A DNA stretch of 64,000 nt from Anaerolineae bacterium (GTDB lineage Bacteria > Chloroflexota > Anaerolineae > B4-G1 > SLSP01). Positions within the stretch are counted from its first letter, which is position 1, and each line of letters opens with the position of its first letter. Location: contig DAOUFX010000230.1 of NCBI GenBank assembly GCA_034429675.1, forward strand, positions 2,339-66,338. Direction: 5' to 3'. The position numbers and the translations under genes were made by a program. Below, in pieces: positions 28,542-48,608 of this stretch. Below the pieces are notes generated by a model that was not told the origin of the DNA, did no database searches, and was given only the letters and a program-made list of their open reading frames with translations.

Positions 28542-28546
28542 AGACT

Positions 28547-31336
28547 ATGGCGCCAAAAAAAGCACGATACGGCAAAAAACAAGACCGACCTCCAACGATT
28601 GGTTTGTTGATCGCCCATTCCCGTGATACTTATGAGAATTCTCTGGTGGTTGATATGTCAGCTGCAGCCGGCAAGTTGGGCGCTCGATTGATTTGTTATG
28701 TTGGCAGTGAGCTCTATCGTGAAATGCCGGAAAATGTGATCTTCGATCTGGTTTCATCGGAAAGAATAGATGGGCTTATTATCAGTCCCTCTCTCGGCCA
28801 CAATTTTGACAAGGAGCGTTTGCGCGCGTTTTGTCAGCGTTATGCTCCTTTGCCTATTGTAAGCGGCGCATTGGGTCTTGAGGAGATTCCTCAGGTGATT
28901 CCTGATGGCTACAGAGGAATGCGCCAGTTGGTGGATCACATGATCGAAGTACATGGATGCCGGCGTATGGTTTTTATCCGTGGCCCTGAAGGTCAGGCCG
29001 AGGCGACTGAGCGTTATCGCGCTTATACCGAGTCGTTGGATGCTCATAAGATAGCTCTCGATCCGGCATTGATCCTCCCCGGCAATTTTACCGAAAGGAT
29101 GGCCTACCGCACCCTGGAAGGACTGTTGGCGAGCGGCGTATCCTTTGATGCGGTTGTCGCCGTCAATGATGATTCAGCTTTGGGCGCGCTGCGAGCTTTG
29201 CAGGATCGCCACATTCGCGTCCCGGAGGATGTCGCCCTTACCGGTTTCGACGATGTGGAGGCTTCTCGTAATCGGAGCGTACCCTTTACCACGGTACGCC
29301 AGTTGTTTACGATGTCCGCTGAATGTATGATAAACCTGCTGATGCAGCAAATCCAGGGCGAGGATGTTCCCCCCGTCGTCGTTATACCGACCGAGTTGGT
29401 CATTCGTCGTTCATGTGGTTGTGTGGCCGATTCGATTCGTCAGGTTACAGTTGACGCGCCTTCTCGCATCATAGACTCGTCGCAGCCGGAGATGCCGCTT
29501 CCTGACAGAATCCCATCGGATTTGTGGACTGCGTTTTTGAATGATTTGATGAGTGAGGAGCATGCTAATTTCCTGGGTATCTTGGATCAGAAGGTGCGCC
29601 AGGTTTATGATGAGCGCGGTGATGTTGCGGCCTGGCAAGACACGTTGACGGAGCTGCGACGTTATGCATTGTCTTACATCGCCCTTCAGCAAATTCGCGA
29701 CCCTGGCTGTTTTGACGATCAGGTGAATCTACAAGCCGAGAATTTGCTCCAGCAGGGGCGAGTGTTGGTCAGCGAGGCGGCGCAACGACTTGGCAGCTTG
29801 TTGCACTACGCAGATACTCGCGCTCTGGTAGATTTCCAATATCTTGACCAGGCCCTGGCGACGGTTCTGGATTTGCACGAGTTGCCCGACGCAATCCGCA
29901 CACACTTGCCGTCCTTGGGAGTTCAATACTGTTATTTGGTTTTGCTTGAAGAAACTCGTTCCCTGCAATCGGCCCGACTGTTGTTGGCGTACTCCGATAG
30001 GGTGGCGCATTTTTATGCGGAAAGCCCGACGTTTGATGCGCGATGGTTGTTACCCGATGAGCTATGGGCCGGCAGTCAGCACCAGCATAGCATTGTGGTT
30101 CCGCTTGTGTTGCGAGAGCGGGTATATGGATTTGCCTATATGGATTTTGGAACGTCGCAGGGAAGGATTTACGAGCGACTGGGCAATCAAATCGGCGGGG
30201 TTATTTCTCGTGCACAGTTGATGGCTCAACAGCAGAAGGTGCAACATGAGGTCGAGCGGCTGTTAACCGATGTCCAACGTCGCGCAGCGCTGTTGACCGG
30301 CGCCGCTGAAATCTCGCGAGCGACCACCTCATTGACGAATTTATCCGATCTGCTCACAGAAGCCGTCAACTTGATGTATGACCGTTTCCATTTGTATTAT
30401 GCGGGCATTTTTCTGGTAGACGAGAACCGTCAGTGGGCTGTTTTGAGCGCCGGCACCGGTGAGGCTGGCCGTTTGATGTTGAAGCAAGGGCACAAATTGG
30501 AGATCGGCGGGACTTCAATGATTGGAATGTGCATTACGCAGCGACAAGCGCACATCACGTTCGACGTTGCGCACGATGTGCGGCTGCGTCGCAATCCGTT
30601 GCTGCCGGAGACGCGCTCGGAAATGGCGTTGCCGTTGATCAGCCGCGACCGTGCGATTGGCGCGATGACCATTCAATCTGCACAGCCCAATGCTTTTTCG
30701 GAAGATGATGTTACCGCCTTGCAGACAATGGCCGACCAGTTGGCGAATGCTATTGAGAATGCGCGGCTGTTTGAACAAATGGAACAGAGCCGCCGTGAAT
30801 TGGAGATCGCCTCCGGGCATTATACGCAGGAGGCCTGGCAACAATTTGTCAGCGGAACCGGGCAGTTGGGATATCGCTCGCACCTTTTGGGCGTTAAACC
30901 GGCGGCTGAGATGCACCTTGAAGCGCAAGAAGCCCTGCGACAGAACGCGCCGGTGGTCACTAATCTGATCGCCGAGACCGGCGCGTCGTCCGGCAGCGCC
31001 CTGGGAGTCCCGGTGCGGTTGCGCAATCAAGTGTTGGGCGTATTGAATTTGCGCTTTGAAAGCGAATCTGTCCCGCCGGAAACGGTGGCCTTAGTTGAGC
31101 AGATTGCAGATCGCCTGGCGATTTCCCTGGAAAGCGCGCGGTTGTTGCAGGAAACGTTGAGCACTGCCGAGCGGGAGCAACGCATCGGTCAAGTCACCGG
31201 GCGGATGCGCGAGAATTTGGATGTAGATGCGGTGGTGCGAACTGCTGCCGAGCAGATTCGCGAGGCCATGGATTTGTCGAGTGTGACGATTCGCCTGTCC
31301 CCTCATTCACGACTATCGGACGAGGATGACGCATGA
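28547..31336 (+). CDS. GAF-array member F: LacI/PurR-type periplasmic-binding-protein-fold (type I) ligand-binding domain, without HTH, + helical region + GAF-A + GAF-B + tail; no output domain
   Basis: The N-terminal ~290 aa carry sugar-binding-domain motifs (TIGLLIAHSRDTYENSL, IDGLIISPSL, RRMVFIRGPEGQAEATERYRAY, VVAVNDDSALGALRALQDRHIRVPEDVALTGFDD). No N-terminal HTH is present. GAF-A runs FHLYYAGIFLVDENRQWAVLSAGTGEAGRLMLKQGHKLEIGGTSMIGMCI...PLLPETRSEMALPLISRDRAIGAMTIQS. The tail is REQRIGQVTGRMRENLDVDAVVRTAAEQIREAMDLSSVTIRL. Confidence 0.8.
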   Translation: MAPKKARYGKKQDRPPTIGLLIAHSRDTYENSLVVDMSAAAGKLGARLICYVGSELYREMPENVIFDLVSSERIDGLIISPSLGHNFDKERLRAFCQRYAPLPIVSGALGLEEIPQVIPDGYRGMRQLVDHMIEVHGCRRMVFIRGPEGQAEATERYRAYTESLDAHKIALDPALILPGNFTERMAYRTLEGLLASGVSFDAVVAVNDDSALGALRALQDRHIRVPEDVALTGFDDVEASRNRSVPFTTVRQLFTMSAECMINLLMQQIQGEDVPPVVVIPTELVIRRSCGCVADSIRQVTVDAPSRIIDSSQPEMPLPDRIPSDLWTAFLNDLMSEEHANFLGILDQKVRQVYDERGDVAAWQDTLTELRRYALSYIALQQIRDPGCFDDQVNLQAENLLQQGRVLVSEAAQRLGSLLHYADTRALVDFQYLDQALATVLDLHELPDAIRTHLPSLGVQYCYLVLLEETRSLQSARLLLAYSDRVAHFYAESPTFDARWLLPDELWAGSQHQHSIVVPLVLRERVYGFAYMDFGTSQGRIYERLGNQIGGVISRAQLMAQQQKVQHEVERLLTDVQRRAALLTGAAEISRATTSLTNLSDLLTEAVNLMYDRFHLYYAGIFLVDENRQWAVLSAGTGEAGRLMLKQGHKLEIGGTSMIGMCITQRQAHITFDVAHDVRLRRNPLLPETRSEMALPLISRDRAIGAMTIQSAQPNAFSEDDVTALQTMADQLANAIENARLFEQMEQSRRELEIASGHYTQEAWQQFVSGTGQLGYRSHLLGVKPAAEMHLEAQEALRQNAPVVTNLIAETGASSGSALGVPVRLRNQVLGVLNLRFESESVPPETVALVEQIADRLAISLESARLLQETLSTAEREQRIGQVTGRMRENLDVDAVVRTAAEQIREAMDLSSVTIRLSPHSRLSDEDDA

Positions 31337-33711
31337 GCAAGCTGTTAAAACGCCTTCTGGCCTTTCAACAATGGCCATTATTTACGAAGTCGTATGCCGC
31401 CATTCTGCTCATTGGCTGGGGGACGTTGCTTTTCATGACGTTCATGGACGCCCGTTCCTTGTATGTGCGTTTGGGCGATCAGATCCGTGAGAATTTTGCG
31501 GCTTTGTCAACGCAGCAGATGTCCAAGATTGTGGACGTTTTGGTCCATCATATAGCTCTGGTTCGCACCGTTGCGTTGAATGCGACCGTGATCGAGGAAG
31601 CGGCGGCATCCTCTGAGCGTTATTCGGGGGATCCGGTTGCCGAACTGGCTGCTTTGAACCAGACCTGGCAGAATGCCGCCGTGGACGATCCGGTGGTGCA
31701 AGATGTGATCAATCCGGATAAGAATGCTCTGACGGCACAGTTGTTGGGCTATATGAAAGGATTCCCCGACTATGACAGCCTTCTGGTTACTGATCGGTAT
31801 GGCGGGGTGATCGCCGCCACGTACCGTCCGACGGATTATGCTTGCACTGATCAGCCCTGGTGGCAGGCTGCTTATGGAGAAGGAACGGGGCATTTAAGCG
31901 TCGCTGTCCTCGATGAAGTTACCGGAATGAAGGTGTCGGTGGCTTTGCCCATCCTCGGGGAAGATAGTGCGACGGTAATGGGTGTTGTGCGAGCAACTTT
32001 TCATTTTGAGAGCATCAAGGATCTGCTGGATGAGTTGTTTGCCAGTTATCATGTCGGCGCGGCGTTGTTTGACGCCAACCGGACCATGCTTGTAGCCAGC
32101 CTGCCCCCCACTACCGGCGCTTACGTCAATTCGGATTGGTTAACATCGGAGGCTTACAATCGTCGGCGTTCCTGGCAGGAGTTGTCGTTCGAGAACGGCG
32201 AGCCTGCTTTGGTGGGGTACAGTTTCATCAAGAAGTTGACGGCAGCTTCTCGCGACGTTGTAGATGAGGCCCTTTATGAACTGGATTGGTCGTTGTTGGT
32301 TTATGCGCCACGGTCCGATGTGTATCTTCCGTTGATTCGTGCTCTATGGGGTGTCTATCTTCGGGCCGCAGTTTGGGGCGTGGGATTGATGGTAGCGGGG
32401 TTCTTCCTCGTGCGCTTCTTTAGCGGGCCGCTTTTGCAGCTATTGGGCGTGGTTGCCCAGGAGGCTACCGGTGATCGTAATGTGCGCGCCTGGATTTATG
32501 CTGCGGATGAGGTCGGTAAATTAGCGCAACATATCAATCGTCTGATTGAAGAGAAGCAGGCTTTGCAACAAGGTGTAGAGCAGCGCTCCATTGAACGTGA
32601 GCTTGAGCAGAAGCGTCGCCAACGCGAGCTTGAAACGACTGCGGCTATCGGCGCCGTCACGTCGGCGACGTTGGAGCTGAACGCTTTGATTGCTCAGGCT
32701 GTAGAAATTGTCCACGATAGTTTTGGATTGTATTTTGTGGGCGTATTCCTGCTCAATGAAACTCGCTCCTGGGCCGTATTACATGGCGGCACCGGCGAAG
32801 CCGGGCAGCTGTTATTGTCCAGAGGGTATCGCGCGCGCGTTGACATCGGGAGTATTGGCCAATGTATCACAGAAGGCCGGGCAGTGGTAGATCGTGATGT
32901 GAGTGCTTCTGTCGCCACAGGATTGCCGGAATTGCCCTATACGCGTTCAGAACTGGCCTTGCCGCTGCGTTCTCGCGGCGATGTTTGGGGCGCGCTCTCC
33001 GTTCACAGTTATCATCAGGATACCTTTGATGGCGACCTGGCCGTGGTTTTGCAAATTATTGCCGACCAAATTGCTGTTGCCATTGATAGTATTCGTCTCT
33101 TCGATGCACGTCAGGAAGCGATGCGCAGCCTCCAGCGTGCGTATGGGGAGGCCAGCCGTGAGGCGTGGGAATCCCTGTTGAAAACCCGCGACAGTCTGGG
33201 GGGTGGCTATCAGGCCAAGCGCGCCGGATCGGTCAAGTTGACGCCGACTTCGCCGGAGTCCTGGCGTCCTGACGTGCAGAACGCCTGGCAAGAGGAATGC
33301 ATGGTTCAAAGCGACGATGCGGCTTCCCAAGAGCATCGCATGGCTTTGCCGGTTGTCGTGCGCGGCGTGGTTATTGGTGTGATTGACGTCGCGAAACCGT
33401 TTGCCGCCGGGGCATGGACGCCGGTTGAAATTGCGGAATTGGAGACGTTGACCTATGAGATCGGCGTGGCTTTGGAGAATGCTCGTCTGTATGAAGATGC
33501 GCGCAGTCGCGCGGTGCGGCAGCGCTTGTTGAGCGATGTTTCCAGCCGCATTCGCTCCCCGTTGACCATAGATGCTGTCTTGCAGACTGCGGCGCGAGAA
33601 ATGCGCGATCTGTTGGGTCTGGATGAGGCCGAGGTACGATTGGCCGAACAGTTTGACGCCCGGACCGGGACCGGGCCTTTGGCAGATACGGCAACGCATC
33701 AGCATAAGTAA
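31333..33711 (+). CDS. GAF-array member G: TM + Cache-like + TM + HAMP + S-helix + GAF-A + GAF-B + tail; no output domain
   Basis: An ATGA overlap joins it to the previous gene. The N-terminal TM helix is ILLIGWGTLLFMTFM and the second TM is ~LRAAVWGVGLMVAGFFLV. The HAMP domain is FSGPLLQLLGVVAQEATGDRNVRAWIYAADEVGKLAQHINRLIEE. GAF-A runs FGLYFVGVFLLNETRSWAVLHGGTGEAGQLLL...GSIGQCI...LPELPYTRSELALPLRSRGDVWGALSVHS. The tail is RQRLLSDVSSRIRSPLTIDAVLQTAAREMRDLLGLDEAEVRL. Confidence 0.85.
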   Translation: MSKLLKRLLAFQQWPLFTKSYAAILLIGWGTLLFMTFMDARSLYVRLGDQIRENFAALSTQQMSKIVDVLVHHIALVRTVALNATVIEEAAASSERYSGDPVAELAALNQTWQNAAVDDPVVQDVINPDKNALTAQLLGYMKGFPDYDSLLVTDRYGGVIAATYRPTDYACTDQPWWQAAYGEGTGHLSVAVLDEVTGMKVSVALPILGEDSATVMGVVRATFHFESIKDLLDELFASYHVGAALFDANRTMLVASLPPTTGAYVNSDWLTSEAYNRRRSWQELSFENGEPALVGYSFIKKLTAASRDVVDEALYELDWSLLVYAPRSDVYLPLIRALWGVYLRAAVWGVGLMVAGFFLVRFFSGPLLQLLGVVAQEATGDRNVRAWIYAADEVGKLAQHINRLIEEKQALQQGVEQRSIERELEQKRRQRELETTAAIGAVTSATLELNALIAQAVEIVHDSFGLYFVGVFLLNETRSWAVLHGGTGEAGQLLLSRGYRARVDIGSIGQCITEGRAVVDRDVSASVATGLPELPYTRSELALPLRSRGDVWGALSVHSYHQDTFDGDLAVVLQIIADQIAVAIDSIRLFDARQEAMRSLQRAYGEASREAWESLLKTRDSLGGGYQAKRAGSVKLTPTSPESWRPDVQNAWQEECMVQSDDAASQEHRMALPVVVRGVVIGVIDVAKPFAAGAWTPVEIAELETLTYEIGVALENARLYEDARSRAVRQRLLSDVSSRIRSPLTIDAVLQTAAREMRDLLGLDEAEVRLAEQFDARTGTGPLADTATHQHK

Positions 33712-33725
33712 AAGGGAGAGACCAG

Positions 33726-35444
33726 ATGTTTTCCTGGATTGCACGCTTATTGAATCCACCGACCTTCAGCAGGGATGAGGAAAAGTCGCGGCAGGCGCGT
33801 TTGTTAGCCATGGTGGTGCGGATTGTTTTGGCGATGGCCATACTCCTGATCCTGGCCGGATTGGTTGCGATGGGACTAAGCTGGCGCGCCGGAGAGCCGG
33901 TGTGGTCTTCGACGGTGTTTTGGTGGTACGTGTTTGCCCTGCTCCTTTTTGTGCTGTCGGGAATCGTGCAGTTTCTGTCCCATGCCGGGCATGTGCGTCC
34001 TGCCAGCATTGTTTTAACCGTGACGATAGGGTGCCTGTTCATATACGGACATTGGTTGACCAGAGTGGGCATCCGTTCTCCGCTTTTCTTAGGCTATATC
34101 CTGGTCGCCTTTGTCGCCGGGTTGTTGTTGGGACGCCGTTGGACGGTGATTGTGGCGGGCGTAAGTATACTTCTGGCCGGCTTCTTGCTTTTTGCCGAGC
34201 ATACCGGTTTGTGGGGCGTGCGCGATATTGCTGAGTTGCCCTGGTTAGCTTCAGGCGGGAGTATGAGCCTTTACGTGGTCGCTGTGGCGCTTTTCTATGT
34301 CGCGTTGAGCAACTTTGACTTGTCTCTAAAGCGGGCAAGGGAGGTTAACCAGGAGTTGGATATTTTCCGAGCCTCGCTTGAGGCGCGTGTTGAGGCGCGC
34401 ACCCGTGATTTGTCGCGGCGCGCGCGATACCTGGAAGCTACGGCGGAAGTGGCGCGTTACGTTAGCTCGGAACTGGCGATGGCTGAATTGCTTATGCGTA
34501 TCGTCAGATTGATCAGTGAACAGTTTGGGTTCTATCACGCCGGTGTTTTTCTGTTAGACCCTACCGGCGCGTGGGCTGAGTTGCAGGCAGCCTCCAGTCC
34601 GGGGGGGCAGGCGATGTTGGCCCGTGGTCATCGTCTGGGTGTAGGACAACAAGGACTTGTGGGATACGTGACTGCCCGTGGTGAGCCACGGGTGGCTTCG
34701 GATATCGGGGACGACGCGGTGTTCTTTGATAATCCCGACTTACCGGAGACCCGTTCGGCGATGGCGCTCCCCTTGCGTGTTGGCGGGCGCATCATCGGGG
34801 CGCTCGATGTGCAGAGCAAGGAATCGGCGGCTTTTAGCCAGGAAGATGTCGCCGTCCTGCAAATTTTGGCCGACCAGGTTGCCGTCGCGATTAGCAATGC
34901 CCGGCTTTTCGAGCGTCTGCAAGAGAGTGTTGCTGCCGAACGTCGCGCCTATGGGGAATTGAGCTATCAAGCGTGGGCTGAAGTACTCAAAGAACAAGGC
35001 GAGTTGGGTTACATTGACAATGTCGCCGGGACTTCCATCGTGAAAGGCGCGCCGATGCCCGATGCTATGCAGTTGGCGGGCAGGGAGGCCACGATTGTCC
35101 AGGAGGAAGAAACCGTGTCCATTCCGGTTACCGTTCAGGAGGGAGAAGGCGTGTTGGGGGTGGTGCGGCTGCGCAAACCCGAGGGCACAGGCGCCTGGAC
35201 GCCGGATCAGGTGTCATTGATGCAGGACATTGTCCAGCAGTTAGGCGTCGCGTTGGAAAGAGCGCGGCTGTATCAGGATTCGCAGCAGGTGGCGATTCGT
35301 GAGCGGTTGGTCAGTGAGGCGACCAGCCGTATGCGGCAGACGTTGGATGTAGAAGCCGTCTTGAAAACGGCGGCGGACGAAATCTATCAGGCATTGCAGT
35401 TGGATGAAATTGTCGTGCGCCTGGCGACTAAACACGACGAGTAG
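33726..35444 (+). CDS. GAF-array member H: polytopic membrane N-domain + S-helix + GAF-A + GAF-B + tail; no output domain
   Basis: GGGAGAG lies 6 nt before the ATG. There are ~6 TM helices. The S-helix is LEARVEARTRDLSRRARYLEATAEVAR. GAF-A runs FGFYHAGVFLLDPTGAWAELQAASSPGGQAMLARGHRLGVGQQGLVGYV...PDLPETRSAMALPLRVGGRIIGALDVQS. The tail is RERLVSEATSRMRQTLDVEAVLKTAADEIYQALQLDEIVVRL. Confidence 0.85.
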   Translation: MFSWIARLLNPPTFSRDEEKSRQARLLAMVVRIVLAMAILLILAGLVAMGLSWRAGEPVWSSTVFWWYVFALLLFVLSGIVQFLSHAGHVRPASIVLTVTIGCLFIYGHWLTRVGIRSPLFLGYILVAFVAGLLLGRRWTVIVAGVSILLAGFLLFAEHTGLWGVRDIAELPWLASGGSMSLYVVAVALFYVALSNFDLSLKRAREVNQELDIFRASLEARVEARTRDLSRRARYLEATAEVARYVSSELAMAELLMRIVRLISEQFGFYHAGVFLLDPTGAWAELQAASSPGGQAMLARGHRLGVGQQGLVGYVTARGEPRVASDIGDDAVFFDNPDLPETRSAMALPLRVGGRIIGALDVQSKESAAFSQEDVAVLQILADQVAVAISNARLFERLQESVAAERRAYGELSYQAWAEVLKEQGELGYIDNVAGTSIVKGAPMPDAMQLAGREATIVQEEETVSIPVTVQEGEGVLGVVRLRKPEGTGAWTPDQVSLMQDIVQQLGVALERARLYQDSQQVAIRERLVSEATSRMRQTLDVEAVLKTAADEIYQALQLDEIVVRLATKHDE

Positions 35445-35458
35445 ACGAGGCAGAGTTT

Positions 35459-37246
35459 ATGCAAGACCGGCAACGAAGAACGTCAGGAAGCCTGGGTGGA
35501 ATACGCGATCGCACTCTGGCGGCATCCGATCTACAAGTATGGCGCGCGCAGTTGGTGCAATATGTGCTGTGGATCATGTCCGCGGTCGGGGTGTTGCCGA
35601 CGTTTTTTGGGGCTTATTATCGTTTTTCGCAGCAGCGTTATGGCGCAGTCCTGTTTTTTATTCTGGCCTATGCCCTGCTTCTTTCCCTTGCCTTTGCGCG
35701 CCGATTGAATTATGTCATCCGGGTCCGCGCGATGTTGTTTCTGCTTTACAGTTTGGCGGTTATTGACTTTTTTGCGGATGGACCGGCCGGCGGCGCGCGC
35801 GTGATGCTGTTGGCGGCGGTTTTCGTCGCCGCGATTTTCCTGGGCGGGCGCGCCGGTCTTTACTCATTATTGCTTGCCCTGGCCATCAATGGGTTCTTTG
35901 CTTACCTTTATCTGACCAGTTTTTTGCCGGCGCCGGCGCCGATTGATTTTGTAGACCCCCGGCGTTGGGGCAGCGGCTTTTTTGTGCTGGCGATGTTGAG
36001 CGGATTGGTTGTCGCCAGTATTGACTACCTCATTCCACGGCTGATTGAGGCGATGTCGCAAAGCGGGCGGTTGGCGCGTGAGCTGACCGACTCTCAGACC
36101 CGTTTGGAAGAGTTGGTGGCGCAACAGGGGATGAATCTGGAGCGCCGTGGCATGCAATTGCAGGCCGCCGCCCAGCTGGCTCGCGAAGCCACCGGGTTTC
36201 AGGACGTGAGGCAGATTCTAAACGAGACGGTCCAGCTGATTTCGGAACGGTTTGGATTTTACCAGGCCGGTATCTTTTTGTTGGACAAGGAGCGCGAGTA
36301 TGCTGAGTTGCGCGCGGCCTCTTCTGAAGGGGGGCGTCTGTTACTGGCGCGCGGCTACCGGCAACAGGTAGGCGTAGGTATTGTCGGTTATGTGGCGCAA
36401 AGCGGCGAACCCCGCATGGCGCTGGATGTGGACAATGACGCTGAATTTCTCAGTACGCCCGACTTGCCCGACACTCGTTCGGAGATCGCTTTGCCGTTGC
36501 GTACCAGAGAGGGCGTTATTGGGGTGTTGGACGTGCAGTCTTTGGAATCTGAGTCATTTACTGATGATGACATGGTCATTCTCCAGACGCTTGCCGATCA
36601 GATTGCTCTGGTGATTTCCAATGCCCAACTTTTGCAGCAGGTAGAATCGCAAGTCGAGGCCGAACGGCAGTTCTATCAGCAGCTGAGCAATCGCGCCTGG
36701 GCGGATCTCATCGCGACGGCGCGGACGCCGGGATTTGCGCGGAATTCCGCGGGCGTTTTCCCGGCGGCGAATATCTGGCGTCCCCGTATGGAGCAGGCCG
36801 TGCAGTCCGGCGCGCTGACCTTTGATGAGCAGGAAGCGGCGGCGGTTTCTGTGCCGATTCGGGTGCGCGGACAGGTCGTGGGCGTGATTGATGCGCGAAA
36901 ACGTGGCGGAACCAGCGCCTGGACTCAAGACGAACTTGAGTTGTTGGAGACGCTGAGTGCGCAGTTGGACCCGGCATTGGATAGCGCGCAATTGTATCAT
37001 AATAGCCAGTTGCTTGCCAAGCGGGAGCAGGTGACGCGTGAAATTGCATCGAGGATGCGAGAAACTTTGGATGCGGACATGATCCTGCAAACGGCCGCCC
37101 GCGAGATCGGCGATGCGTTGGGGCTGGCCGATTTTGTGATTCGGGTGGGGACCTCCGATCAGCTTTTGTCGCGGAGTACTTATTCTGACGTTGAATCGGA
37201 TGTGGATGGTAATCCCGAAGCGAGGGGGATGAAGGATGTTGCGTAA
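35459..37246 (+). CDS. GAF-array member I: polytopic membrane N-domain + coiled coil + GAF-A + GAF-B + tail; no output domain
   Basis: There are ~6 TM helices. The coiled coil is LARELTDSQTRLEELVAQQGMNLERRGMQLQAAAQLAR. GAF-A runs FGFYQAGIFLLDKEREYAELRAASSEGGRLLLARGYRQQVGVGIVGYV...PDLPDTRSEIALPLRTREGVIGVLDVQS. The tail is REQVTREIASRMRETLDADMILQTAAREIGDALGLADFVIRV. Confidence 0.85.
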   Translation: MQDRQRRTSGSLGGIRDRTLAASDLQVWRAQLVQYVLWIMSAVGVLPTFFGAYYRFSQQRYGAVLFFILAYALLLSLAFARRLNYVIRVRAMLFLLYSLAVIDFFADGPAGGARVMLLAAVFVAAIFLGGRAGLYSLLLALAINGFFAYLYLTSFLPAPAPIDFVDPRRWGSGFFVLAMLSGLVVASIDYLIPRLIEAMSQSGRLARELTDSQTRLEELVAQQGMNLERRGMQLQAAAQLAREATGFQDVRQILNETVQLISERFGFYQAGIFLLDKEREYAELRAASSEGGRLLLARGYRQQVGVGIVGYVAQSGEPRMALDVDNDAEFLSTPDLPDTRSEIALPLRTREGVIGVLDVQSLESESFTDDDMVILQTLADQIALVISNAQLLQQVESQVEAERQFYQQLSNRAWADLIATARTPGFARNSAGVFPAANIWRPRMEQAVQSGALTFDEQEAAAVSVPIRVRGQVVGVIDARKRGGTSAWTQDELELLETLSAQLDPALDSAQLYHNSQLLAKREQVTREIASRMRETLDADMILQTAAREIGDALGLADFVIRVGTSDQLLSRSTYSDVESDVDGNPEARGMKDVA

Positions 37247-38708
37247 ACTTTATCGGGCCATTATGTCTAGTATTCGCGCCAAAGTGCTGGTAGTGATGTT
37301 GTCCATTGCGCTGCTGCCGCCGGCCGTGATGTCAGGATATACGGCGCTGCAGGCGATTTTCCCTTCCTTTCCCCGCAGCCAGTGGTTGACCCTCGGCATC
37401 GTGGGGGGATTGGTGTTGTTCGTGATAGTTTTGGAACAATGGAGCGCCACCCGTTTGGCGCATCCTTTGCAGCAGTTGCAGATTCGAGCCGTCCAGATGG
37501 GTGCGGGAGACTTGGAAACCGAAATTGCGCTGACGAAGACGGCGCACCCCGATGAAATCGAACTGTTGGCCGACGCCTTGAACCGGACCCGTCTTGCTCT
37601 TTTGCGGACACGCGAGGAATTGGAATTGCAGGTGGAGTCGGCGGAGAGGCGGGCCGAAGATTTGCGCACGGCGGCTGAGGTGGCGGCTTCGGCGGCGGCG
37701 ATTCTTAATCCACAGGAGTTGTTGAGCAACGTTGTGAGCCTTATCAGCGAGCGATTTGGTTTCTATCACACCGGCGCGTTTTTGTTGGACGAAACCGGCG
37801 CCTGGGCCAATTTGCAGGCCGCTTCCAGTGTGGGCGGGCAACGGATGTTGTCGCGCGGACATCGCCTGCGGGTTGGCGAGCAGGGGATTGTGGGGTATGT
37901 GGCGGCGACAGGCGAGCCGCGAATTGCGCTGGATGTTGGCGTGGACGCGGCGCATTTCGCCAATCCCGATCTTCCTGATACGCGCTCGGAAATGGCTTTG
38001 CCATTGCAGTCGCGCAACCGTATTTTGGGCGTGTTGGATGTACAATCGGTTGAGGCGGAAGCTTTTGGCAGTGAAGATATTGTGACCCTACAAATTTTGG
38101 CCGACCAGGTGGCGATGGCCCTCAGCAATGCGCAATTGTTCCAGGCTGCGCAAGAAAACCTGGTGGCCTTACAGCGCGCGCGGGGCGAGTATAGCTTTCA
38201 GGGCTGGGTTGAACTGGCGCGCACGTTGGAGGGCGGCGGATACCGGTATCATCAGAAGACGCTCTCGCCGGCCAAGGATGTCTGGCGTCCGGAAATGGCT
38301 CGCGCCGTTCGGGAGGGTCAGGTGGTGCAGGGCTCCGGGCGATCCGATACGGTGGCGATTCCGTTGCGCGACCGCGACCAGATTATCGGAGTGATGGATG
38401 CGCGTAAACCCGATGGCGCGGGGACCTGGAGCGAAGATGAGATCGCGCTGCTTGAAACCCTGGGGCGCCAATTGGAGGTCGCTTTAGGCAGCGCCCGGTC
38501 CTATCAGGAGACCCGAATTCGCGAAGCTCGCGAGCAGACCGTGCGCCGCATCGCCGACAGCATGCGGCGTTCTTTGGAAGTGGATATGGTTGCGCAGCGA
38601 GCTGTCCAGGAGTTGGGGCAAGCACTTGGCGCAGGGACCGTGGCAATCCGGTTGGGCACTCTCGAAAAGCTGTTGCCGCCGGATGATCAGTCAGAGGATA
38701 AGGGCTAA
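37236..38708 (+). CDS. GAF-array member J: 2 TM + HAMP + S-helix + GAF-A + GAF-B + tail; no output domain
   Basis: It overlaps the previous gene by 11 nt. TM helices are VLVVMLSIALLPPAVM and LTLGIVGGLVLFVIV. The HAMP domain is RLAHPLQQLQIRAVQMGAGDLETEI. GAF-A runs FGFYHTGAFLLDETGAWANLQAASSVGGQRMLSRGHRLRVGEQGIVGYV...PDLPDTRSEMALPLQSRNRILGVLDVQS. The tail is REQTVRRIADSMRRSLEVDMVAQRAVQELGQALGAGTVAIRL. Confidence 0.85.
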   Translation: MLRKLYRAIMSSIRAKVLVVMLSIALLPPAVMSGYTALQAIFPSFPRSQWLTLGIVGGLVLFVIVLEQWSATRLAHPLQQLQIRAVQMGAGDLETEIALTKTAHPDEIELLADALNRTRLALLRTREELELQVESAERRAEDLRTAAEVAASAAAILNPQELLSNVVSLISERFGFYHTGAFLLDETGAWANLQAASSVGGQRMLSRGHRLRVGEQGIVGYVAATGEPRIALDVGVDAAHFANPDLPDTRSEMALPLQSRNRILGVLDVQSVEAEAFGSEDIVTLQILADQVAMALSNAQLFQAAQENLVALQRARGEYSFQGWVELARTLEGGGYRYHQKTLSPAKDVWRPEMARAVREGQVVQGSGRSDTVAIPLRDRDQIIGVMDARKPDGAGTWSEDEIALLETLGRQLEVALGSARSYQETRIREAREQTVRRIADSMRRSLEVDMVAQRAVQELGQALGAGTVAIRLGTLEKLLPPDDQSEDKG

Positions 38709-38711
38709 AGT

Positions 38712-40484
38712 ATGAGCGAACCATCGTTGACCGATTGGGTACAGGAACGCGACCGCCAGCGGTTAAAGGTTCTGAATATCCTGATGCTGGTTGCGACGGT
38801 TGCCGGCGGGGCGGCAACTTTGCCGTCGTTCATTGCTGCTTTGCAAGACTCGCGCCGCTTTGCGACCGAGGCGCCGGTGTTTTTCTCCTACTTGATCATT
38901 GTATTGGCGACTGTTCTGCCACGATTGGACTATCGGCTACGGTTGGGAGTGTTGGTGACGGCCCTTTATTTTGTGGGAATTGCTACGGTGCGCACCTACG
39001 GGATTGCCAGTCACGGCGTCTGGTATCTGCTGGTGGTGCCCCTGGTGATGTTTCCCTTGATCGGCTGGCGCATGGGAGCCTTTTCGTTGGGCTTGAGTGC
39101 TGTGCTGTTTTTCTTTTTCGCGGCAGGGCATCTAATGGGATGGCTCTCGCTGGATTCGTTGCCCGATCCGCGCACTCAGGCGATTGTATCCAGGTTCTCT
39201 GCTGTTTTCATAGCCTTGCTATCAGGCGTTGGAATCATTCAGGGATTTTTTAATCACCATCAGGAGCAGGCCTTGCAGGAGACTTCCGCGCGGGCGTCCG
39301 AGCTAACTCGAGCGCGAGAGAAGTTACAGGAGCACACTACCGAGTTATTACACACCAATGAGCGTTTGCGCACGCAATCGTGGTTGTTGAATACGGCGGC
39401 GTATCTTATCGGTGAGATCTCAGGGTTGGATGATCTGGAGACATTGCTCACCCAAGTCGTGCAGATTCTGCAAAGACGTTTCCAACGCTTTGGTGTTGAG
39501 TGCGTGGGAATTTTCATGCAAGACCTGGAAACGTTGACCACGCAGTCCGTTGCGACTGCCCCCTTGATTTTGCGGGCATTGAGCGGTAGGGAAATTTTCC
39601 CATTGCGCTCGGTGAATGTTTCGACGGTTGTGGCGCAGGCGATACATTCGGGGGAGGTGACTTTCGGGCCATGCACTGTGCGGTCGGAGACAGGCACCCT
39701 CCCGGCTTATGAACTCGCAGTTCCTTTGCGTTTGTACTTGCATAGTGGACGCGCCGATGTCATTTCTCGCGGCGTTTTATATTTTTGCAATACCACTCAG
39801 GCGCTTTTTGAGGATTTGGATGAAGCCGTGTGGCTGACGTTGGCCAGCCAGTTGTCGGTGGCAATACAGAATGTGGGTTTGCTACAAAAGGCTCGCGGCG
39901 AGGTCCAGGAAATGCGGCGGCTACAACAACAATATATGGAACAGTCATGGCGCGACCTCTTCGCCGATGCGGCGGTTTTTGCTTACCATGCCGATGAGAC
40001 GCAGGCGGATAAATCCTGGCAATTTGCTCCAGAGGTTGCGGCAGCATTGCGCGAGGAACGTGTGGTGGTTCGCGGCGGGTCCAAGCATACGCGCGGCGCT
40101 ATCATCGTCCCTGTCAAGGTGCGCGACACGATTTTGGGCGTTGTTGAGATCCAGAGCGCGGAGCCGGGGGCGATGTGGTCCCGTGAGCAATTGGACCTGG
40201 TGGATACGGTGGTGGATCAGCTGGGGGTAGCTTTGGACAGCGCCCGGCTGTACCAAGAATCACTGCGCCGGGCATCCCGTGAGCAATTGACCCGTGAGAT
40301 TACCGATGAAATGCGTCGTTCCATTACGATGGAGACAATTTTGCGGACTGCGGTCGAGAAGCTAGGGCAAGCTATTGGGGTTCCACAGGCTTATGTGCAG
40401 TTGAAATTGAACGAGGGCCCGGAACCGGCGCCGGAGGCGCCGGTTGCGAGCGGAGAGGGAGAAGAGTCTCATGCGTCACAATAA
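38712..40484 (+). CDS. GAF-array member K: polytopic membrane N-domain + coiled coil + divergent GAF + GAF-B + tail; no output domain
   Basis: There are ~6 TM helices. The coiled coil is ETSARASELTRAREKLQEHTTELLHTNERLR. The first GAF is divergent (FQRFGVECVGIFMQDLETLTTQSVA...). GAF-B runs AIIVPVKVRDTILGVVEIQSAEPGAMWSREQLDLVDTVVDQLGVALDSARLYQ. The tail is REQLTREITDEMRRSITMETILRTAVEKLGQAIGVPQAYVQL. Confidence 0.8.
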   Translation: MSEPSLTDWVQERDRQRLKVLNILMLVATVAGGAATLPSFIAALQDSRRFATEAPVFFSYLIIVLATVLPRLDYRLRLGVLVTALYFVGIATVRTYGIASHGVWYLLVVPLVMFPLIGWRMGAFSLGLSAVLFFFFAAGHLMGWLSLDSLPDPRTQAIVSRFSAVFIALLSGVGIIQGFFNHHQEQALQETSARASELTRAREKLQEHTTELLHTNERLRTQSWLLNTAAYLIGEISGLDDLETLLTQVVQILQRRFQRFGVECVGIFMQDLETLTTQSVATAPLILRALSGREIFPLRSVNVSTVVAQAIHSGEVTFGPCTVRSETGTLPAYELAVPLRLYLHSGRADVISRGVLYFCNTTQALFEDLDEAVWLTLASQLSVAIQNVGLLQKARGEVQEMRRLQQQYMEQSWRDLFADAAVFAYHADETQADKSWQFAPEVAAALREERVVVRGGSKHTRGAIIVPVKVRDTILGVVEIQSAEPGAMWSREQLDLVDTVVDQLGVALDSARLYQESLRRASREQLTREITDEMRRSITMETILRTAVEKLGQAIGVPQAYVQLKLNEGPEPAPEAPVASGEGEESHASQ

Positions 40485-43400
40485 AACCAGTTCCCGGCGA
40501 ACCGGGGACGCCCGGAGGCCATTGGCAGGAATTGTGCCCGGTCCTTCTGCGCCTGAGGCCAATCCGTTGTTCTCAGAGGCCGAATCCCGATTTGCCGATA
40601 TGGCTGCGTTGAGCGCCGATTGGCTTTGGGAAACGGATGTCGTAGGGCGTTATGTTTATTCGTCGGCGCGGGTAACGGATATTTTAGGTTATACCGCCGA
40701 CGAAGTGGTGGGAAAGACTCTATTTGATTTGTTGCCTGCCGAAGAGGCTTCACGCCTGCGTGACACGCTTGGCGAGGTGATGGTGGCCCGGCATCCCATT
40801 GAAAATCTGGTGCATCAAAAGATCGCTAAAGATGGGCGCTCCGTGTGGGTACAAACTCAGGCCAGACCGGTTTTTGCTGCGGATGGCGGGTTGTTGGGCT
40901 ATCGGGGCGTTGATCGCGATATTACGGCGCAACGACAGACTGAAGAAGCGCAACGACAATTGCGGGAGCAGGAAGCTTTTTTGCGACAGGTGTTGGATAT
41001 CAACCCGAATTTTGTATTTGTCCGGGATCGTGAAGGGCGCTTTGTCCTGGCGAATCAGGCTATCGCCGACGCTTATGGTACGACTGTGGACGGCTTAATC
41101 GGCAAGACCGATGCCGATTTTACGCTGAGTGGTGCGGATGTGGAAGCGATTCGGCGCAGTGACCTGGGCGTGATGGAGTCTCTGAAGGAGAAATTCATCC
41201 CTGAGAGCCACATCGCTTATGGCGGGGCGCATCCGCGCTGGGTTCAGACCATCAAACGCCCGTTGGTGGACGAAGATGGCGTTGCGCGCCGGGTGCTGGG
41301 AGTTTCGAGTGACATCACCGAGCGCAAATTGATGCAGCAGGCGATCGAGGCTTCCCTGGAGCGACGTGGGCGTCAGGTACAGACGAGCACCGAGATTGCG
41401 CAGGAGATCGCGGGTATAGCGGCGCTGGATGAATTATTCCGCAAGGTGGTGACGCTGGTAAAGGAACGATTTGGCTATTATCATGCCCAAATTTTCCGTT
41501 ACGATGCGGCGACCCAGGCGATGCGGTTGGTGGTCGGCTATGGCGACACCGGACAGGCGATGTTGGAGGCCGGACATTACCTGCCGATGGGGCGAGGCGT
41601 GGTAGGGACGGCCGCAGAGACCGGACGACCGGTCATGGCGAGCGACGTGTCGCAGGATTCGGATTGGATTCCCAATAAATTTCTGCCCAAGACGCAAGGC
41701 GAACTGGCCGTTCCTATCCGGCTGCGGGACGAAATCCTGGGGATTCTTGACGTGCAAAGCGAGACGGCAGGAGCGCTGACCGGGGAGGATCAATTGCTGT
41801 TGGAGGGCCTCTGCGGTCAGATTGCCATTGCTATGGAGAGCACCCAGTTGCTCGAGTTTACCGGCGCTTTCCGGCAAGTGATTGAGGCATCGGGGCAGGG
41901 GATCGGTTGGGCAACCCTGGATGGCACGATGGTGTACGTCAATCCTATGATGTGCCGTATGCTCAATGTGCCCGATTCGTCCGCTCTGGTGGGGCGATTG
42001 TCGCAGAGCTTTTACCCGCCGGAAGTCCAACGACGCCTTGCGGAGGAGATTCTGCCGGCGGTGTTGCAGGAAGGACAATGGCAAGGCGAGTTACCTCTGC
42101 TTTGCTCCGATGGAAAAGTGATCCCAACGTTGGCAAACATCTTCATCATTCGTGACAAAGAGGGCACGCCTCTCTATTTCGCGAATCAAATTGCCGACAT
42201 CACCGCGCGAAAACAAGTCGAAGTGTCTCTGTTGCATAGTGAACAGCGCTACCGGGTGCTATTCGAGCAGGCCAACGATGCAATTCTGCTGGAAAACGAA
42301 AAGGAGCTGATTGTTGACGTAAACCAGCGCGCTTGCGAGTTGTTCGGATACACGCGAGATGAATTGCTTACGATGAAGACATCCGATTTGCAGCCGCCCT
42401 CAACAAGTTCCCTGCCTATTTATTCGGACCCGGGCATGCCAACGAATATCTTCGAACTGAAGGCCTCAAAGCGAGATGGCACGCCTCTCTATATTGAGGT
42501 GCACATTACGCCTCTTGAGATCGGTGGGGAGTCTTTGTTCCTGTCAATTGTGCGAGACATCACCGGGCGCCGGCAAACTGAGCTGGCGTTGGAACAGGAA
42601 CGTTACTTGTTGAATTCCCTGATGGAGAATACCCCGGATCACATTTATTTCAAAGATGTCGAGAACCGTTTCGTTCGCGTTAATCGTTCGATGGCCGAGT
42701 GGCTCCAATTGAGTTCACCTGAAGAGGCGGTTGGCAAGACCGATTTCGATTTTTTCTCCGAAGAACATGCCCGGCAAGCTTTTGACGATGAAAAGATTTT
42801 GATGGAAACCGGACAGTCATTGATCGGGCTTGAGGAGAAGGAAACCTGGCAGGATGGTCATGTGACCTGGGTTTCAACCACCAAATTGCCGATGTACGAT
42901 CGTCAGGGCGTCGCGAGTGGCACGTTTGGAATTTCGCGGGATATTACCGAGAGTCGTCAGGCGCAAGAGCAACTGCGTGAGACGCAGCGTTTGTTGCAAG
43001 GGATTCTGGATAATACTACGGTGGTTATCTACATCAAAGATTTGCAGGGACGCTATTTGCTGGTGAACCGGCGTTATGAGACCTTGTTTAGCGTCAAGCA
43101 ACCTGACATTGTCGGAAAAACTTTCAGAGAGGTTTTCGCGAATTTGGAATTCGCCGGACTGGGGGTTGAAACTGAGACGGTTTTGGAAAGCGGGCAATCG
43201 CTGGAGCAGATTGAAACGATCCGGCGTGAGGATGCGGTGCATACTTATCTCTCGCTCAAGTTCCCTCTCTGCGCCGATGATGGTGCACCCTATGCGATCG
43301 GTTGCATTTCTACCGATATTACCGAACGTGAGTCAGCGGAGACTGAGCGCAAGCGATTGCTGAGCGATCTGGAAAGCCATGCGAAACAATTGGAGGTGGC

Positions 43401-45024: not shown

Positions 45025-45027
45025 TGT

Positions 45028-46806: not shown

Positions 46807-47005
46807 GTTATCGTTTCAATAAAGGTGGGGATTTGGGGGCGGGCGCAGCCCACCCCCCCAGATTTTGAGAAGATACTGAGCATATATCTTTGATTTGACT
46901 TTGTTGGCTATCTGAGCAACGATAGGGTAGAATATGGTAAGGTTATAGAGAAATCTTTTCTCATAACCCCGGACAAAGAGAGACATTTGAGGTAGAGGTG
47001 ATGTT
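46807..47005 (+). promoter_or_regulatory. 199-bp low-GC intergenic region, the largest gap inside the array; probable internal promoter/regulatory region for the downstream cassette
   Basis: GC content drops here. The region contains TTGACT (about 46896) and TAGAAT (about 46929) hexamers, though their spacing is not canonical. An imperfect hairpin GGTTATAGAGAAATCTTTTCTCATAACC at ~46945..46972 lies just upstream of the GAGGTAGAGGTGA ribosome-binding site of gene 47006. Confidence 0.35.
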
Positions 47006-47587: not shown

Positions 47588-47601
47588 GGAGGATTGAGGC
47601 T

Positions 47602-47952: not shown

Positions 47953-47988
47953 GCGGTAAAGGGTGCACCATAGTGAAAGAAGGCGATT

Positions 47989-48567: not shown

Positions 48568-48608
48568 ATGTCAGATGTTTATTGAAAGCTGAGTGAGGAG
48601 TGCCCATA

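Follow-up and report, generated by a model that had tools for sequence, protein, structure and literature searches.

Genome annotations often contain sensor proteins without an output domain, and little is understood of such proteins. The window (the whole stretch of 64,000 nucleotides that was analysed) comes from an Anaerolineae-type bacterium and contains 20 neighbouring genes for GAF-type sensors (16652..63561, + strand), all of which have the same module of 44 amino acids at the C-terminal ends of their products. What is this module, where did it come from, and what could it do at the end of so many sensors?

Twenty sensor genes with a common ending

The module, here called the tail, can be recognized by a sequence profile, which scores 44–68 bits at the C-terminus of 20 out of 20 proteins and at most 16 bits elsewhere in the same proteins (Table 1). 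The first two genes (those starting at 16652 and 18513) are far more divergent than the other members of the array. The initial annotation had assigned the tail to every member from A to Y. This is correct for the 20 GAF-type genes, but not for genes N–Q, which are two slr1658/slr1659 pairs with neither a GAF domain nor a tail; and the end of gene Y lies outside the window, as this gene starts near 63527 and continues past the window edge, which is 440 nucleotides beyond the last array gene. In Pfam scans the 20 array proteins are all without a match to HisKA or HATPase_c, i.e., they do not qualify as histidine kinases.

Table 1. Positions of the tails, of the genes that encode them and of the genes at the head of the operon (nucleotides of the window; scores are those of the tail profile unless stated otherwise).
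Feature	Position	Strand	Gene	Score (bits)	Remarks
Two single-domain REC genes	13413..13814, 13854..14273	+			operon head; Pfam Response_reg 97 and 75.7 bits
Histidine kinase	14258..16612	+			sensor, HAMP, GAF-A-like GAF, HisKA, HATPase; immediately precedes the first array gene
Gene A tail	18350..18481	+	16652..18520	44.4	divergent
Gene B tail	20028..20159	+	18513..20213	53.5	
Gene C tail	22907..23038	+	20228..23068	53.5	
Gene D tail	25669..25800	+	23083..25854	52.7	
Gene E tail	28305..28436	+	25851..28541	59.5	
Gene F tail	31169..31300	+	28547..31336	54.7	
Gene G tail	33514..33645	+	31333..33711	57.9	
Gene H tail	35295..35426	+	33726..35444	62.2	
Gene I tail	37019..37150	+	35459..37246	67.9	protein of 595 aa
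Gene I low-complexity unconserved C-terminal extension and stop codon	37151..37246	+	35459..37246		family-wide: 10% pairwise identity, 1.14 bits per column
Gene J tail	38526..38657	+	37236..38708	61.2	
Gene K tail	40275..40406	+	38712..40484	64.5	
Gene L tail	44866..44997	+	40444..45024	57.2	
Gene M tail	46669..46797	+	45028..46806	57.2	protein ends 2 aa later
Protein R tail	49443..49574	+	48966..49607	63.7	
Gene S tail	51788..51919	+	49625..51979	62.3	
Gene T tail	54606..54737	+	52047..54761	55.0	
Gene U tail	56342..56470	+	54788..56506	56.0	
Gene V tail	59677..59808	+	56704..59898	59.3	
Gene W tail	61647..61778	+	59829..61847	55.9	
Gene X tail	63361..63492	+	61801..63561	66.5	

The layout of an array protein can be illustrated by gene I, for which it was derived from a Pfam scan, a local GAF profile and an AlphaFold2 model (pLDDT 86.8). 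A MASE11 membrane sensor is followed by GAF-A (aa 239–396), a connector helix (aa 369–420), the core of a mini GAF-B (aa 421–489), α5 of GAF-B (aa 490–520), the tail (aa 521–564) and an unconserved extension (aa 565–595). Within the tail there are a connector helix, h0 (aa 521–537), α1 (aa 539–553) and β1 (aa 557–564). The range 37000–37246 originally given for the motif in gene I does contain it, but also takes in the last part of the GAF-B helix and the extension of 31 amino acids. The protein from gene L has six PAS and several GAF domains, and protein R is a minimal member of 213 amino acids comprising a coiled coil, a four-strand mini GAF-B and the tail.

The consensus first drawn up for the tail is broadly correct, but none of its columns is invariant, and the mean column identity is 49% in the alignment of the 20 genes. 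Nor does the protein stop right after the motif: the stop codon is 2–34 amino acids further on in the array (family-wide median 13), and the residues in between are not conserved, being acidic or Gly/Pro-rich in the array and E/G/P/D-rich family-wide. Among 487 sequences, the information content per column is 2.51 bits for the tail, 2.56 for GAF-A and 1.68 for the GAF-B core; within the module that the array proteins share, conservation is highest in GAF-A (40% pairwise identity). The conserved positions in the tail include several at the surface: R562, E523/Q524 and R532–R534.

Twenty tandem paralogues with similar 3′ ends could also be seen as carrying DNA-level repeats, kept for recombination or gene conversion among the genes. 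However, third codon positions of the tails are identical in 34% of cases, against a chance expectation of 29%, and first and second positions in 54%; and in a blastn search of the window, the tail of gene I matches only itself. On these two grounds the repeat was rejected, and hardly any weight can be given to it. Thus, to judge from codon positions, the likeness of the tails is one of protein only.

Is the array peculiar to this genome? A family can be defined by the order variable sensor, GAF-A, connector, mini GAF-B and 44-residue stub, with a stop codon within ~100 amino acids, and the array has this layout, by which kinase-less GAF sensors that end in a tail can be recognized in Chloroflexota. 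Word-indexed homologue searches, with protein R or with the alignment of the 20 paralogues, gave seven close relatives each, and a tight alignment of seven sequences served as the query for related loci. There are 679 terminal copies of the tail in 152 sources, usually standing in arrays; the median number in a locus (up to ~20 kb) is 6. Of the 417 tail matches in the first 71 loci that were fetched, 401 end within 60 amino acids of a stop codon; 69 of these loci came from a scan of GTDB genomes, and all 69 are from Chloroflexota (Anaerolineae, Thermoflexia or others). Among the related loci, a link between the tail and slr1658/slr1659 partner-switch-like genes was not found outside two close relatives. 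A literature search around truncated or split GAF domains and MASE11, with most subscription journals outside its coverage, yielded nothing about this family.

The tail as the start of a GAF domain

A GAF domain has ~130–150 amino acids and comprises α1, an antiparallel sheet of five to six strands and a C-terminal α5. The initial annotation noticed that the tail resembles such a domain in its first helix and strand, and profile comparison bears this out. When the tail is aligned by hhalign with 645 GAF-A domains of the same family, it covers columns 1–36 of 159 (probability 92.9%, P 3.6e-7); in the PDB, the tail profile matches residues 141–182 of 6OAP (53 bits, E 2e-13, a score equal to the level of the window's own tails), and also 8W26 and 2LB5 residues 14–54. 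As had been supposed, the tail is not an independent GAF domain, since only those 36 columns are covered before the protein ends, 2–34 amino acids later; and the Pfam GAF families (PF01590, PF13185 and PF13492) have no match over the tail in the array proteins, where a complete fold is thus not present.

The closest likeness is to the start of GAF domains of the phytochrome/cyanobacteriochrome class, which has in common with the tail the pattern RE..v..It..iR.sLDld.iLqTav.Evr..L.adrV.vy and the same secondary structure (predicted, in the case of the tail). In the solved domains of this class, ~110 more residues follow the segment and its strand lies in the middle of the sheet, whereas the array proteins end shortly after the strand. 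At E ≤ 1e-3, 8355 proteins match the tail profile. An internal repeat with a period of 170–190 amino acids is found in 122 of the best 150 matches, i.e., they are multi-GAF proteins; those that were checked are cyanobacterial kinases, in which the motif opens each complete GAF domain with a profile score of 15–45 bits. A generic N-terminal GAF helix lacking family-specific conservation had been foreseen as an observation that would refute the proposal on the tail. The motif is indeed generic to a large subclass of GAF domains, but the truncation, and a switch in polarity described below, are specific to the family.

From which proteins, then, could the sensors have been cut? The histidine kinase upstream of the array has a kinase core, unlike the 20 array proteins, and has no tail according to the tail profile. 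The order REC-REC-HK that it closes is also present in at least 10 related loci. Wherever a kinase is visible in a related locus, it is either part of such a trio upstream or a hybrid histidine kinase downstream, on the same strand as the array. On each side 11 boundaries are visible; a kinase lies next to 7 of them, and no kinase lies next to the other 4. In the window the upstream trio is present, and the downstream end of the array lies beyond it.

It is the hybrid kinases that explain the tail. Those at 13458–17312 of related locus L117 and 14749–18600 of locus L108 have a sensor, HAMP, GAF-A, connector and mini GAF-B as in the array proteins, are encoded in the same operon on the same strand, and align collinearly with the sensors across 334 columns of the profile, the tail columns among them. 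The L117 kinase comprises dCache, HAMP, three GAF domains, HisKA, HATPase and REC, and the joint profile of GAF-A, GAF-B and tail aligns to it over columns 2–334 with 389.6 bits. The array proteins stop after the stub, whereas the hybrid kinase goes on to complete a GAF-C (aa 754–908), which the tail columns open, and then has HisKA (at aa 922), HATPase and REC. Because the tail columns of the hybrid kinase start a complete GAF-C that leads to HisKA, the array genes can be recognized as kinase-less paralogues cut after β1. Thus, the tail is the connector helix, α1 and β1 of a third GAF domain, of which the other ~110 residues are absent, and the array genes are paralogues, without the kinase part, of a hybrid histidine kinase (sensor, HAMP, GAF-A, GAF-B, GAF-C, HisKA, HATPase, REC).

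A remnant of a different part of the lost kinase core, namely a degenerate DHp/HisKA phospho-acceptor helix, might be suspected, as the "SARMREPL" of the tail is superficially like the H-box "SHELREPL" of the kinase at 14258..16612. This idea was rejected as next to impossible, since hhalign gives a probability of 0.4% for 585 tails against 26 DHp regions of local kinases, compared with that quoted above for the GAF N-terminus. Furthermore, no array protein has a HisKA match in any Pfam scan, and in the hybrid kinase HisKA lies 140 amino acids further on, past the complete GAF-C.

The profile of the tail on its own has no match at the start of GAF-C in local hybrid kinases at domain E ≤ 0.01. 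Such poor scores imply that the truncation is ancient, and they weaken the argument that the stub mimics the interface of the kinase itself. The 679 genes, the conservation at the level of GAF-A and the saturated third codon positions likewise mark the cut just after β1 as old and, on these measures, as maintained by purifying selection. An odd C-terminal motif thereby becomes a testable statement about evolution: these Chloroflexota sensors are histidine kinase paralogues, all cut at one point of a GAF domain. The family amounts to hundreds of genes, up to 20 per operon, in which a fragment of a GAF domain was kept and re-coded without the rest of the domain.

Fold and contacts of the stub

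What becomes of the first helix and strand of a domain when the remainder is missing? In the AlphaFold2 monomer models of gene I and protein R (pLDDT 84.0 for the latter), the tail consists of two helices and an unpaired extended segment, with pLDDT ~83–87 and ~76–84, respectively; the input alignments were shallow (18–20 paralogues), and the models are read as secondary structure and pLDDT. The tail is therefore predicted to be ordered, and the disorder that had been considered as an alternative is not borne out. Mean-field direct coupling analysis (DCA) of 585 and 487 family members, which is noisy at a Meff of ~420–500, places 98 of 336 top couplings inside the 44 residues, in a pattern of antiparallel α1/β1 and h0/α1. 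No coupling of the tail to GAF-B or to GAF-A is above z ~4 (the best of them ranks 71st in the first run and 142nd in the second). In the true GAF-A of the same proteins, which served as a control, α1–α5 (z 7.7) and β1–β2 (z 5.6) were recovered.

The composition of the strand has also changed. Position 562 holds R, Q or H in 84% of tails; in the internal copies of the motif it is Y in 82%. Position 560 is polar in 53% of tails and hydrophobic in 76% of internal copies: E/T and R/Q stand at these two positions in the tails, where complete GAF domains have Y, F or V. In GAF-C of the hybrid kinases the strand (SFYVALYD) is hydrophobic on both faces; that of the tail has a polar face. Thus, by these residue counts, the face that is buried in complete GAF domains has become polar, with Tyr replaced by Arg or Gln at position 562.

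These results bear on the suggestion that the tail is swapped into another GAF domain. One form of it is that the tail completes GAF-B, in the same chain or in the dimer partner, by circular permutation or domain swap. In a GAF profile, the match to GAF-B is confined to the last ~55 positions, and that to the tail lies in the first ~35; α1 of the tail has weak couplings to α5 of GAF-B (512–549, z 3.2; 508–543, z 2.5); and in protein P0009 a unit of β-hairpin, α5 and tail is duplicated with a period of 116 amino acids, so an internal tail can serve as the start of the mini-GAF that follows it. However, GAF-B has an N-terminal hairpin of its own in the AlphaFold2 model (gene I aa 426–429 and 432–435; model E195–198 and E201–204). 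DCA couples this hairpin to the last strand of GAF-B (rank 4; pair 428–479, numbered as in gene I), which means that the β1 site is already occupied. With the tail strand unpaired in both monomer models, contacts to the GAF-B sheet missing from the top couplings while the GAF-A control contacts are strong, and a polar face where burial would be needed, completion of GAF-B is quite unlikely.

The other form is that the orphan α1-β1 enters the core of a GAF domain in another protein, e.g. by displacing α1-β1 of GAF-C in the hybrid kinase, so that the sensor plugs into the kinase. By position, the tail is the homologue of the segment that opens that GAF-C, and sensors without an output domain are encoded in one operon with kinases. 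Against this, no acceptor, in the form of a GAF domain lacking α1-β1, was seen in the window or among the kinases that were examined (L117, L108 and others have a complete GAF-C), E/T and R/Q at positions 560 and 562 fit poorly with a place inside a GAF core, and the tail profile does not recognize the start of the kinases' own GAF-C. The probability of such trans-complementation is low, if a little above that of GAF-B completion. In sum, an unpaired strand, the lack of coupling to GAF-B or GAF-A and the polar face leave both insertions unsupported. The predictions support instead a stub that folds by itself, as a small helix-helix-strand cap formed by the end of the signalling helix, α1 and β1, which would be neither a loose peptide nor plugged into GAF-B or GAF-A.

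A possible link from stub to phosphorelay

Why would a self-folded stub be kept? Possibly, it is a structural vestige, i.e., a hydrophobic cap that keeps the cut signalling helix folded and dimeric and neither signals nor docks, the output of the sensors lying elsewhere (e.g. in ligand binding or sequestration by GAF-A, or in effects on the membrane). The strong self-coupling of the tail, which makes it look self-contained, and the rank of GAF-A as the best conserved part of the module agree with this. However, the tail is as conserved as GAF-A and more so than the GAF-B core, surface positions included; conservation that extends to R562, E523/Q524 and R532–R534 is beyond the need of a simple cap, and the steady association with kinase and receiver genes points to coupling at the level of proteins. 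The vestige is thus rather doubtful. If the stub were only a helix cap, the output of the sensors should be sought in GAF-A and the connector helices.

The preferred explanation is that the sensors are truncated, kinase-less paralogues with a self-folded stub that couples them to the flanking kinases; taken as a whole, it is probable by a small measure. The sensors would be dimers, in which long connector helices hold both chains together, and the two stubs would meet at the far end, possibly via antiparallel β1:β1′ pairing. Couplings within the strand hint at such pairing (z 2.5–3.9), and those of the connector helix indicate two incompatible registers for the quaternary structure. The paired stubs may be the sole "output" surface of the array sensors: a stub would act as cap and readout of the signalling helix, and would let many kinase-less sensors bind and modulate the histidine kinases and receivers at both ends of the array. 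Coupling between proteins is the likeliest task for the stub because the stub retains the helices that lie next to GAF-C in the kinase encoded with it; most likely, it acts as a dimeric cap or interaction surface. Docking to a common effector, as proposed in the initial annotation, would fit the operons, where genes for histidine kinases and receivers lie on the flanks of the arrays.

Perhaps, the coupling goes further, to a hub with many inputs and one phosphorelay, in which kinase-less sensors, as many as 20, would join the two flanking histidine kinases in mixed dimers or larger assemblies and the GAF-C stub would make the contact by which kinase activity is set. Assembly would occur via the shared module of GAF-A, connector, GAF-B and stub, each protein adding a different sensor domain. 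This would be a functional analogue of the chemoreceptor array that is cytoplasmic, GAF-based and built from truncated kinase paralogues; it is put forward tentatively, as more unlikely than likely. If the stub does couple sensors to kinases, it would be a new route for many signals into one phosphorelay and a natural, stable and functional fragment of a GAF domain, which would be of interest to protein engineering.

Three known systems can be compared with the array proteins. The tandem GAF domains of the adenylyl cyclase CyaB2 and of PDE2A/PDE5 (1YKD, 1MC0, 3MF0) pass their signal to a catalytic domain of their own chain; in the array proteins, by contrast, GAF-B is a reduced version with five strands, and only the stub follows.

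RetS acts on GacS in Pseudomonas; it keeps DHp and CA and binds through its DHp. The array proteins would be like RetS in idea, as sensor paralogues without a kinase output of their own that modulate a co-regulated kinase by protein contact. Unlike RetS, they lack the entire kinase core, and a GAF fragment forms their C-terminal end.

Chemoreceptors carry a C-terminal tether, the NWETF pentapeptide, on which CheR and CheB dock. Like the array sensors, they are paralogues with variable sensor domains and a conserved element at the extreme C-terminus. The chemoreceptor element is five residues long and comes after a disordered linker, whereas the tail is predicted to be a folded unit of 44 amino acids, with a disordered stretch after it.

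The operon and the tail of its sensors

The window (GC content 54.7%) carries one long operon on the + strand, which extends from 13.4 kb to the window end.

Genes of the operon in the window
Feature	Position	Strand	Description
Single-domain receiver (REC) gene	13413..13814	+	operon start
Single-domain receiver (REC) gene	13854..14273	+	operon start
Histidine kinase	14258..16612	+	HAMP, GAF, HisKA and HATPase domains; after both receiver genes
20 paralogous sensor genes without output domain	16652..63561	+	after the histidine kinase
Two slr1658/slr1659 gene pairs	47006..48953		interrupt the array; slr1658-family = DUF6272, SiaB-like; slr1659-superfamily = STAS-like

The N-termini of the array proteins vary (MASE11, dCache with HAMP, a LacI-type binding-protein fold, or six PAS domains). 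The C-terminal part is common to 20/20 and consists of a complete GAF (GAF-A), followed by GAF-B, which matches only the last ~55 positions of the GAF profile, and then by the tail. In the upstream histidine kinase, GAF-A is joined directly to the kinase core. The LacI-type fold (Peripla_BP_3, 94.6 bits) is the N-terminal sensor of the member at 28547..31336, and two related loci (L001 and L002) have separate NMT1-type binding-protein genes within the array. The member at 56704..59898 (1064 aa) begins with ~700 multi-pass membrane residues that match no Pfam family, possibly a membrane sensor not yet described or a transporter-like domain.

The slr1658-family genes inside the array score 219-227 bits to NF052618 and have a SiaB-like kinase fold; their slr1659-superfamily partners are STAS/SiaC-like. 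Directly after the two pairs lies protein R, the minimal member of 213 aa (whole stretch 47006..49607). Two relatives (L001 and L002) share the order slr1658, slr1659, R, which the other 149 loci compared lack; the cluster may form a branch of the system that works by partner switching. A close homologue of protein R is annotated as "Anaerolineae bacterium" (a metagenome-assembled genome, MAG), and the gene order of the window is conserved in that MAG and in one more distant relative.

Alignment of the last 200 aa shows the tail in 20/20 array proteins. Its 44-aa core has a mean column identity of 49% and no invariant column among the window paralogues, and the tail profile reaches 44-68 bits at the very C-terminus of each protein (2-34 aa from the motif end to the protein end) and no more than 16 bits elsewhere. 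In gene I, the representative chosen in the initial annotation, the tail is aa 521-564 (nt 37019-37150); the range first proposed, 37000-37246, includes it together with the last part of the helix before it and an unconserved extension of 31 aa. The statement that every member from A to Y bears the tail holds for all 20 GAF-type members but is too strong, because N-Q are the slr1658/slr1659 genes, which have no tail, and Y runs off the window. Gene Y (ORF 63527..64000, frame 3) has a membrane domain at its start and could be either a further array member or the downstream hybrid kinase.

The third codon positions of the tails are 34% identical (29% by chance), and blastn found no DNA repeat matching the gene I tail elsewhere in the window. 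These two results exclude similarity as a DNA repeat, and with it the idea, of negligible probability, that the conserved 3′ ends are a DNA recombination handle.

Homology and origin of the tail

When 585 family tails were compared with 645 GAF-A domains of the same proteins by profile-profile alignment, the tail aligned to GAF columns 1-36, i.e., α1 and β1 (92.9% probability, P 3.6e-7), which bears out the early remark that it resembles the first helix and strand of a GAF domain. With the DHp regions of the local kinases as target, the same query gave 0.4% probability, which refutes a degenerate DHp helix as practically without chance. The closest sequence and structure relatives are GAF N-terminal segments of the phytochrome/cyanobacteriochrome class, namely residues 141-182 of 6OAP, a LOV-cyanobacteriochrome kinase (53 bits, E 2e-13), and the first 54 residues of the SyB-Cph1 GAF structures 8W26 and 2LB5, which score as high with the tail profile as the tails in the window do; the other closest relative is GAF-C of the operon-type hybrid kinase described below. 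The tail passes a test of homology to the GAF N-terminus, but fails as a member of the GAF domain family because its fold is incomplete. Domain scans found no Pfam or NCBIfam model covering it, and no paper on the tail-bearing family was found in the literature searched.

The 44-column profile, searched against 1.84 billion representative proteins, matched 8355 at E<=1e-3 and 1336 at E<=1e-10. Among the best 150 matches, 122 are multi-GAF proteins with 2-10 internal copies at a period of 170-190 aa, each copy starting a complete GAF and the last typically lying 350-440 aa from the C-terminus; those examined individually are multi-GAF histidine kinases from cyanobacteria. In about 22-28 of the 150, the motif is a genuine C-terminal tail with a short acidic or Gly-rich stretch after it. 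The motif is thus the generic N-terminal segment of a phytochrome/cyanobacteriochrome-type GAF subclass; the special feature of the array proteins is that the chain ends after the first strand.

Two-component genes of the same strand flank the arrays in related loci: REC-REC-HK upstream, as in the window, and downstream a large hybrid kinase with receiver genes after it (a kinase is adjacent at 7/11 clearly visible boundaries on each side). The hybrid kinase is known from these loci, as the window stops before the downstream end of its array. The layout of REC, REC, HK and 5-8 or more tail-bearing sensors recurs (L117:1-17312, L108:1-18600, L003, L009, L078, L094 and L100); L108 and L117 are complete small systems of REC, REC, HK, five tail-bearing sensors and a closing hybrid HK, and in several other loci further receiver genes follow the hybrid HK.

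The hybrid kinase comprises dCache, HAMP, three GAFs, HisKA, HATPase and REC, that is, the common GAF-A/GAF-B module together with a complete GAF-C. The GAF-A+GAF-B+tail profile aligns to it over columns 2-334 (389.6 bits), and the tail columns fall on α1-β1 of the complete third GAF (aa 754-908), after which HisKA begins at aa 922; the kinase sequence here reads '...TQRRAEQMATVNRIGLSINSDLDLKGVLNALYEQISHMLDIDSFYVALYDASSGMIEF...'. The array genes are therefore paralogues without a kinase, cut immediately after β1 of GAF-C. The tail is thus shown to be an orphan h0-α1-β1 of GAF-C, kept by selection in these kinase-less paralogues of a hybrid kinase encoded with them.

Predicted fold and residue coupling

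AlphaFold2 monomer models, built from paralogue alignments and read by secondary structure and pLDDT, were obtained for protein R (pLDDT 84.0) and for gene I aa 232-575 (86.8). They contain a 52-residue connector helix, a reduced GAF-B core of five strands and one helix, a 45-residue helix spanning GAF-B α5 into the first third of the tail, and a second tail helix (model residues 308-323), after which an extended segment is paired with no strand. The tail pLDDT (about 83-87 in gene I, about 76-84 in protein R) means that the tail is not predicted to be disordered, a possibility raised in the initial annotation.

Mean-field DCA was run on 585 GAF-B+tail modules (Meff 505) and on 487 GAF-A+GAF-B+tail modules (Meff 424). 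The most self-coupled part is the tail, 98/336 top couplings of the second run falling within its 44 residues, as an antiparallel α1/β1 set (i+j about 1100-1110, gene I numbering here and below) and an h0/α1 hairpin set (i+j about 1075-1087). From the tail to the GAF-B sheet or to GAF-A, no coupling ranked above 71 and 142 in the two runs (z <= about 4). An integrated α1-β1 would have been visible, since a control on 645 true GAF-A domains (Meff 459) recovered α1-α5 (z 7.7), β1-β2 (z 5.6) and β1-β5. GAF-B moreover shows coupling of its own first hairpin with the last strand (428-479, rank 4); the docking site for β1 is therefore already occupied.

In 84% of 585 terminal tails, position 562 carries Arg, Gln or His, whereas 82% of 430 internal copies from complete GAFs have Tyr there; position 560 is polar in 53% of the former and hydrophobic in 76% of the latter. 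The inward face of a complete GAF has therefore become surface. Completion of GAF-B by the tail, in cis or by swapping, as first proposed, is opposed by the AlphaFold2 models, the DCA and this polarity switch, and is quite improbable. Insertion into the GAF core of a partner, the other form of the proposal, is likewise improbable, as it is opposed by the same switch; no acceptor GAF was seen either in the window or among the kinases examined, and GAF-C of the kinases is complete. What the predictions support instead is a self-folded tail that caps the end of the signalling helix as a small unit and completes neither GAF-B nor GAF-A nor a canonical GAF core.

Couplings within the tail strand (557-562, 557-564, 556-563 and 558-564; i+j about 1119-1122) persist without indel sequences (z 2.5-3.9) and are impossible as contacts inside one extended strand; they fit, suggestively only, a symmetric antiparallel β1:β1′ pair. 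In the family alignment, the connector helix also couples with the GAF-B α5/h0 helix (gene I aa 239-520, window 36173..37018) in two incompatible registers, parallel (j-i about 100-115) and antiparallel (i+j about 941), at z 3-4; an antiparallel dimer or four-helix bundle, two signalling states, or noise might each account for this.

Distribution and putative role

A GTDB scan of one genome per species, with a narrow search pattern that may have missed other phyla, found 69 loci, 69/69 in Chloroflexota (Anaerolineae, Anaerolineales, Thermoflexales, Thermoflexia and "Chloroflexia" MAGs); a metagenome scan added 80. Judged on stop-to-stop translations, the stop codon lies within 60 aa of the tail match in 401/417 matches of the first 71 loci and within 98 aa in 8 more, and only 5 weak matches (15-21 bits) are internal. 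Over 152 sources there are 679 terminal tails (median 6, maximum 11 per locus of up to ~20 kb), followed by an unconserved extension rich in E, G, P and D (median 13 aa). Conservation of the tail is on a par with that of GAF-A and exceeds that of the GAF-B core (2.51, 2.56 and 1.68 bits per column, respectively, over 487 sequences; pairwise identity among the window paralogues 31%, 40% and 24%).

The sensors would dimerise along their connector helices, so that two caps meet, and the cap is the best candidate for the surface by which they act on the flanking kinases, because they have no other output and lie between kinases and receivers sharing the GAF-A/GAF-B module. We consider this reading as a whole (a GAF-C stub, self-folded as a dimeric cap that couples to the kinases) somewhat better than an even bet; its structural and evolutionary core stands on far firmer ground than the coupling step. 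A structural cap without a signalling role is a rather unlikely alternative, opposed by the conserved exposed residues and the operon context. For a cap coupling to kinases, the closest functional analogies would be kinase-less sensors that bind a true kinase and thereby modulate it, as RetS does with GacS, and the conserved C-terminal tether of chemoreceptors. The tail is a sub-domain fragment that is real, widespread and under selection, and its genomic arrangement is striking; it is, however, made wholly of familiar parts, and its function is putative.

In one metagenome protein found by the profile search (P0009, 366 aa), a unit of β-hairpin, α5, tail and "GxGLPSGEA" occurs as a head-to-tail duplication with a period of 116 aa. 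An internal tail can therefore directly precede the C-terminal half of a mini-GAF, an arrangement that represents a still more reduced GAF-like repeat.
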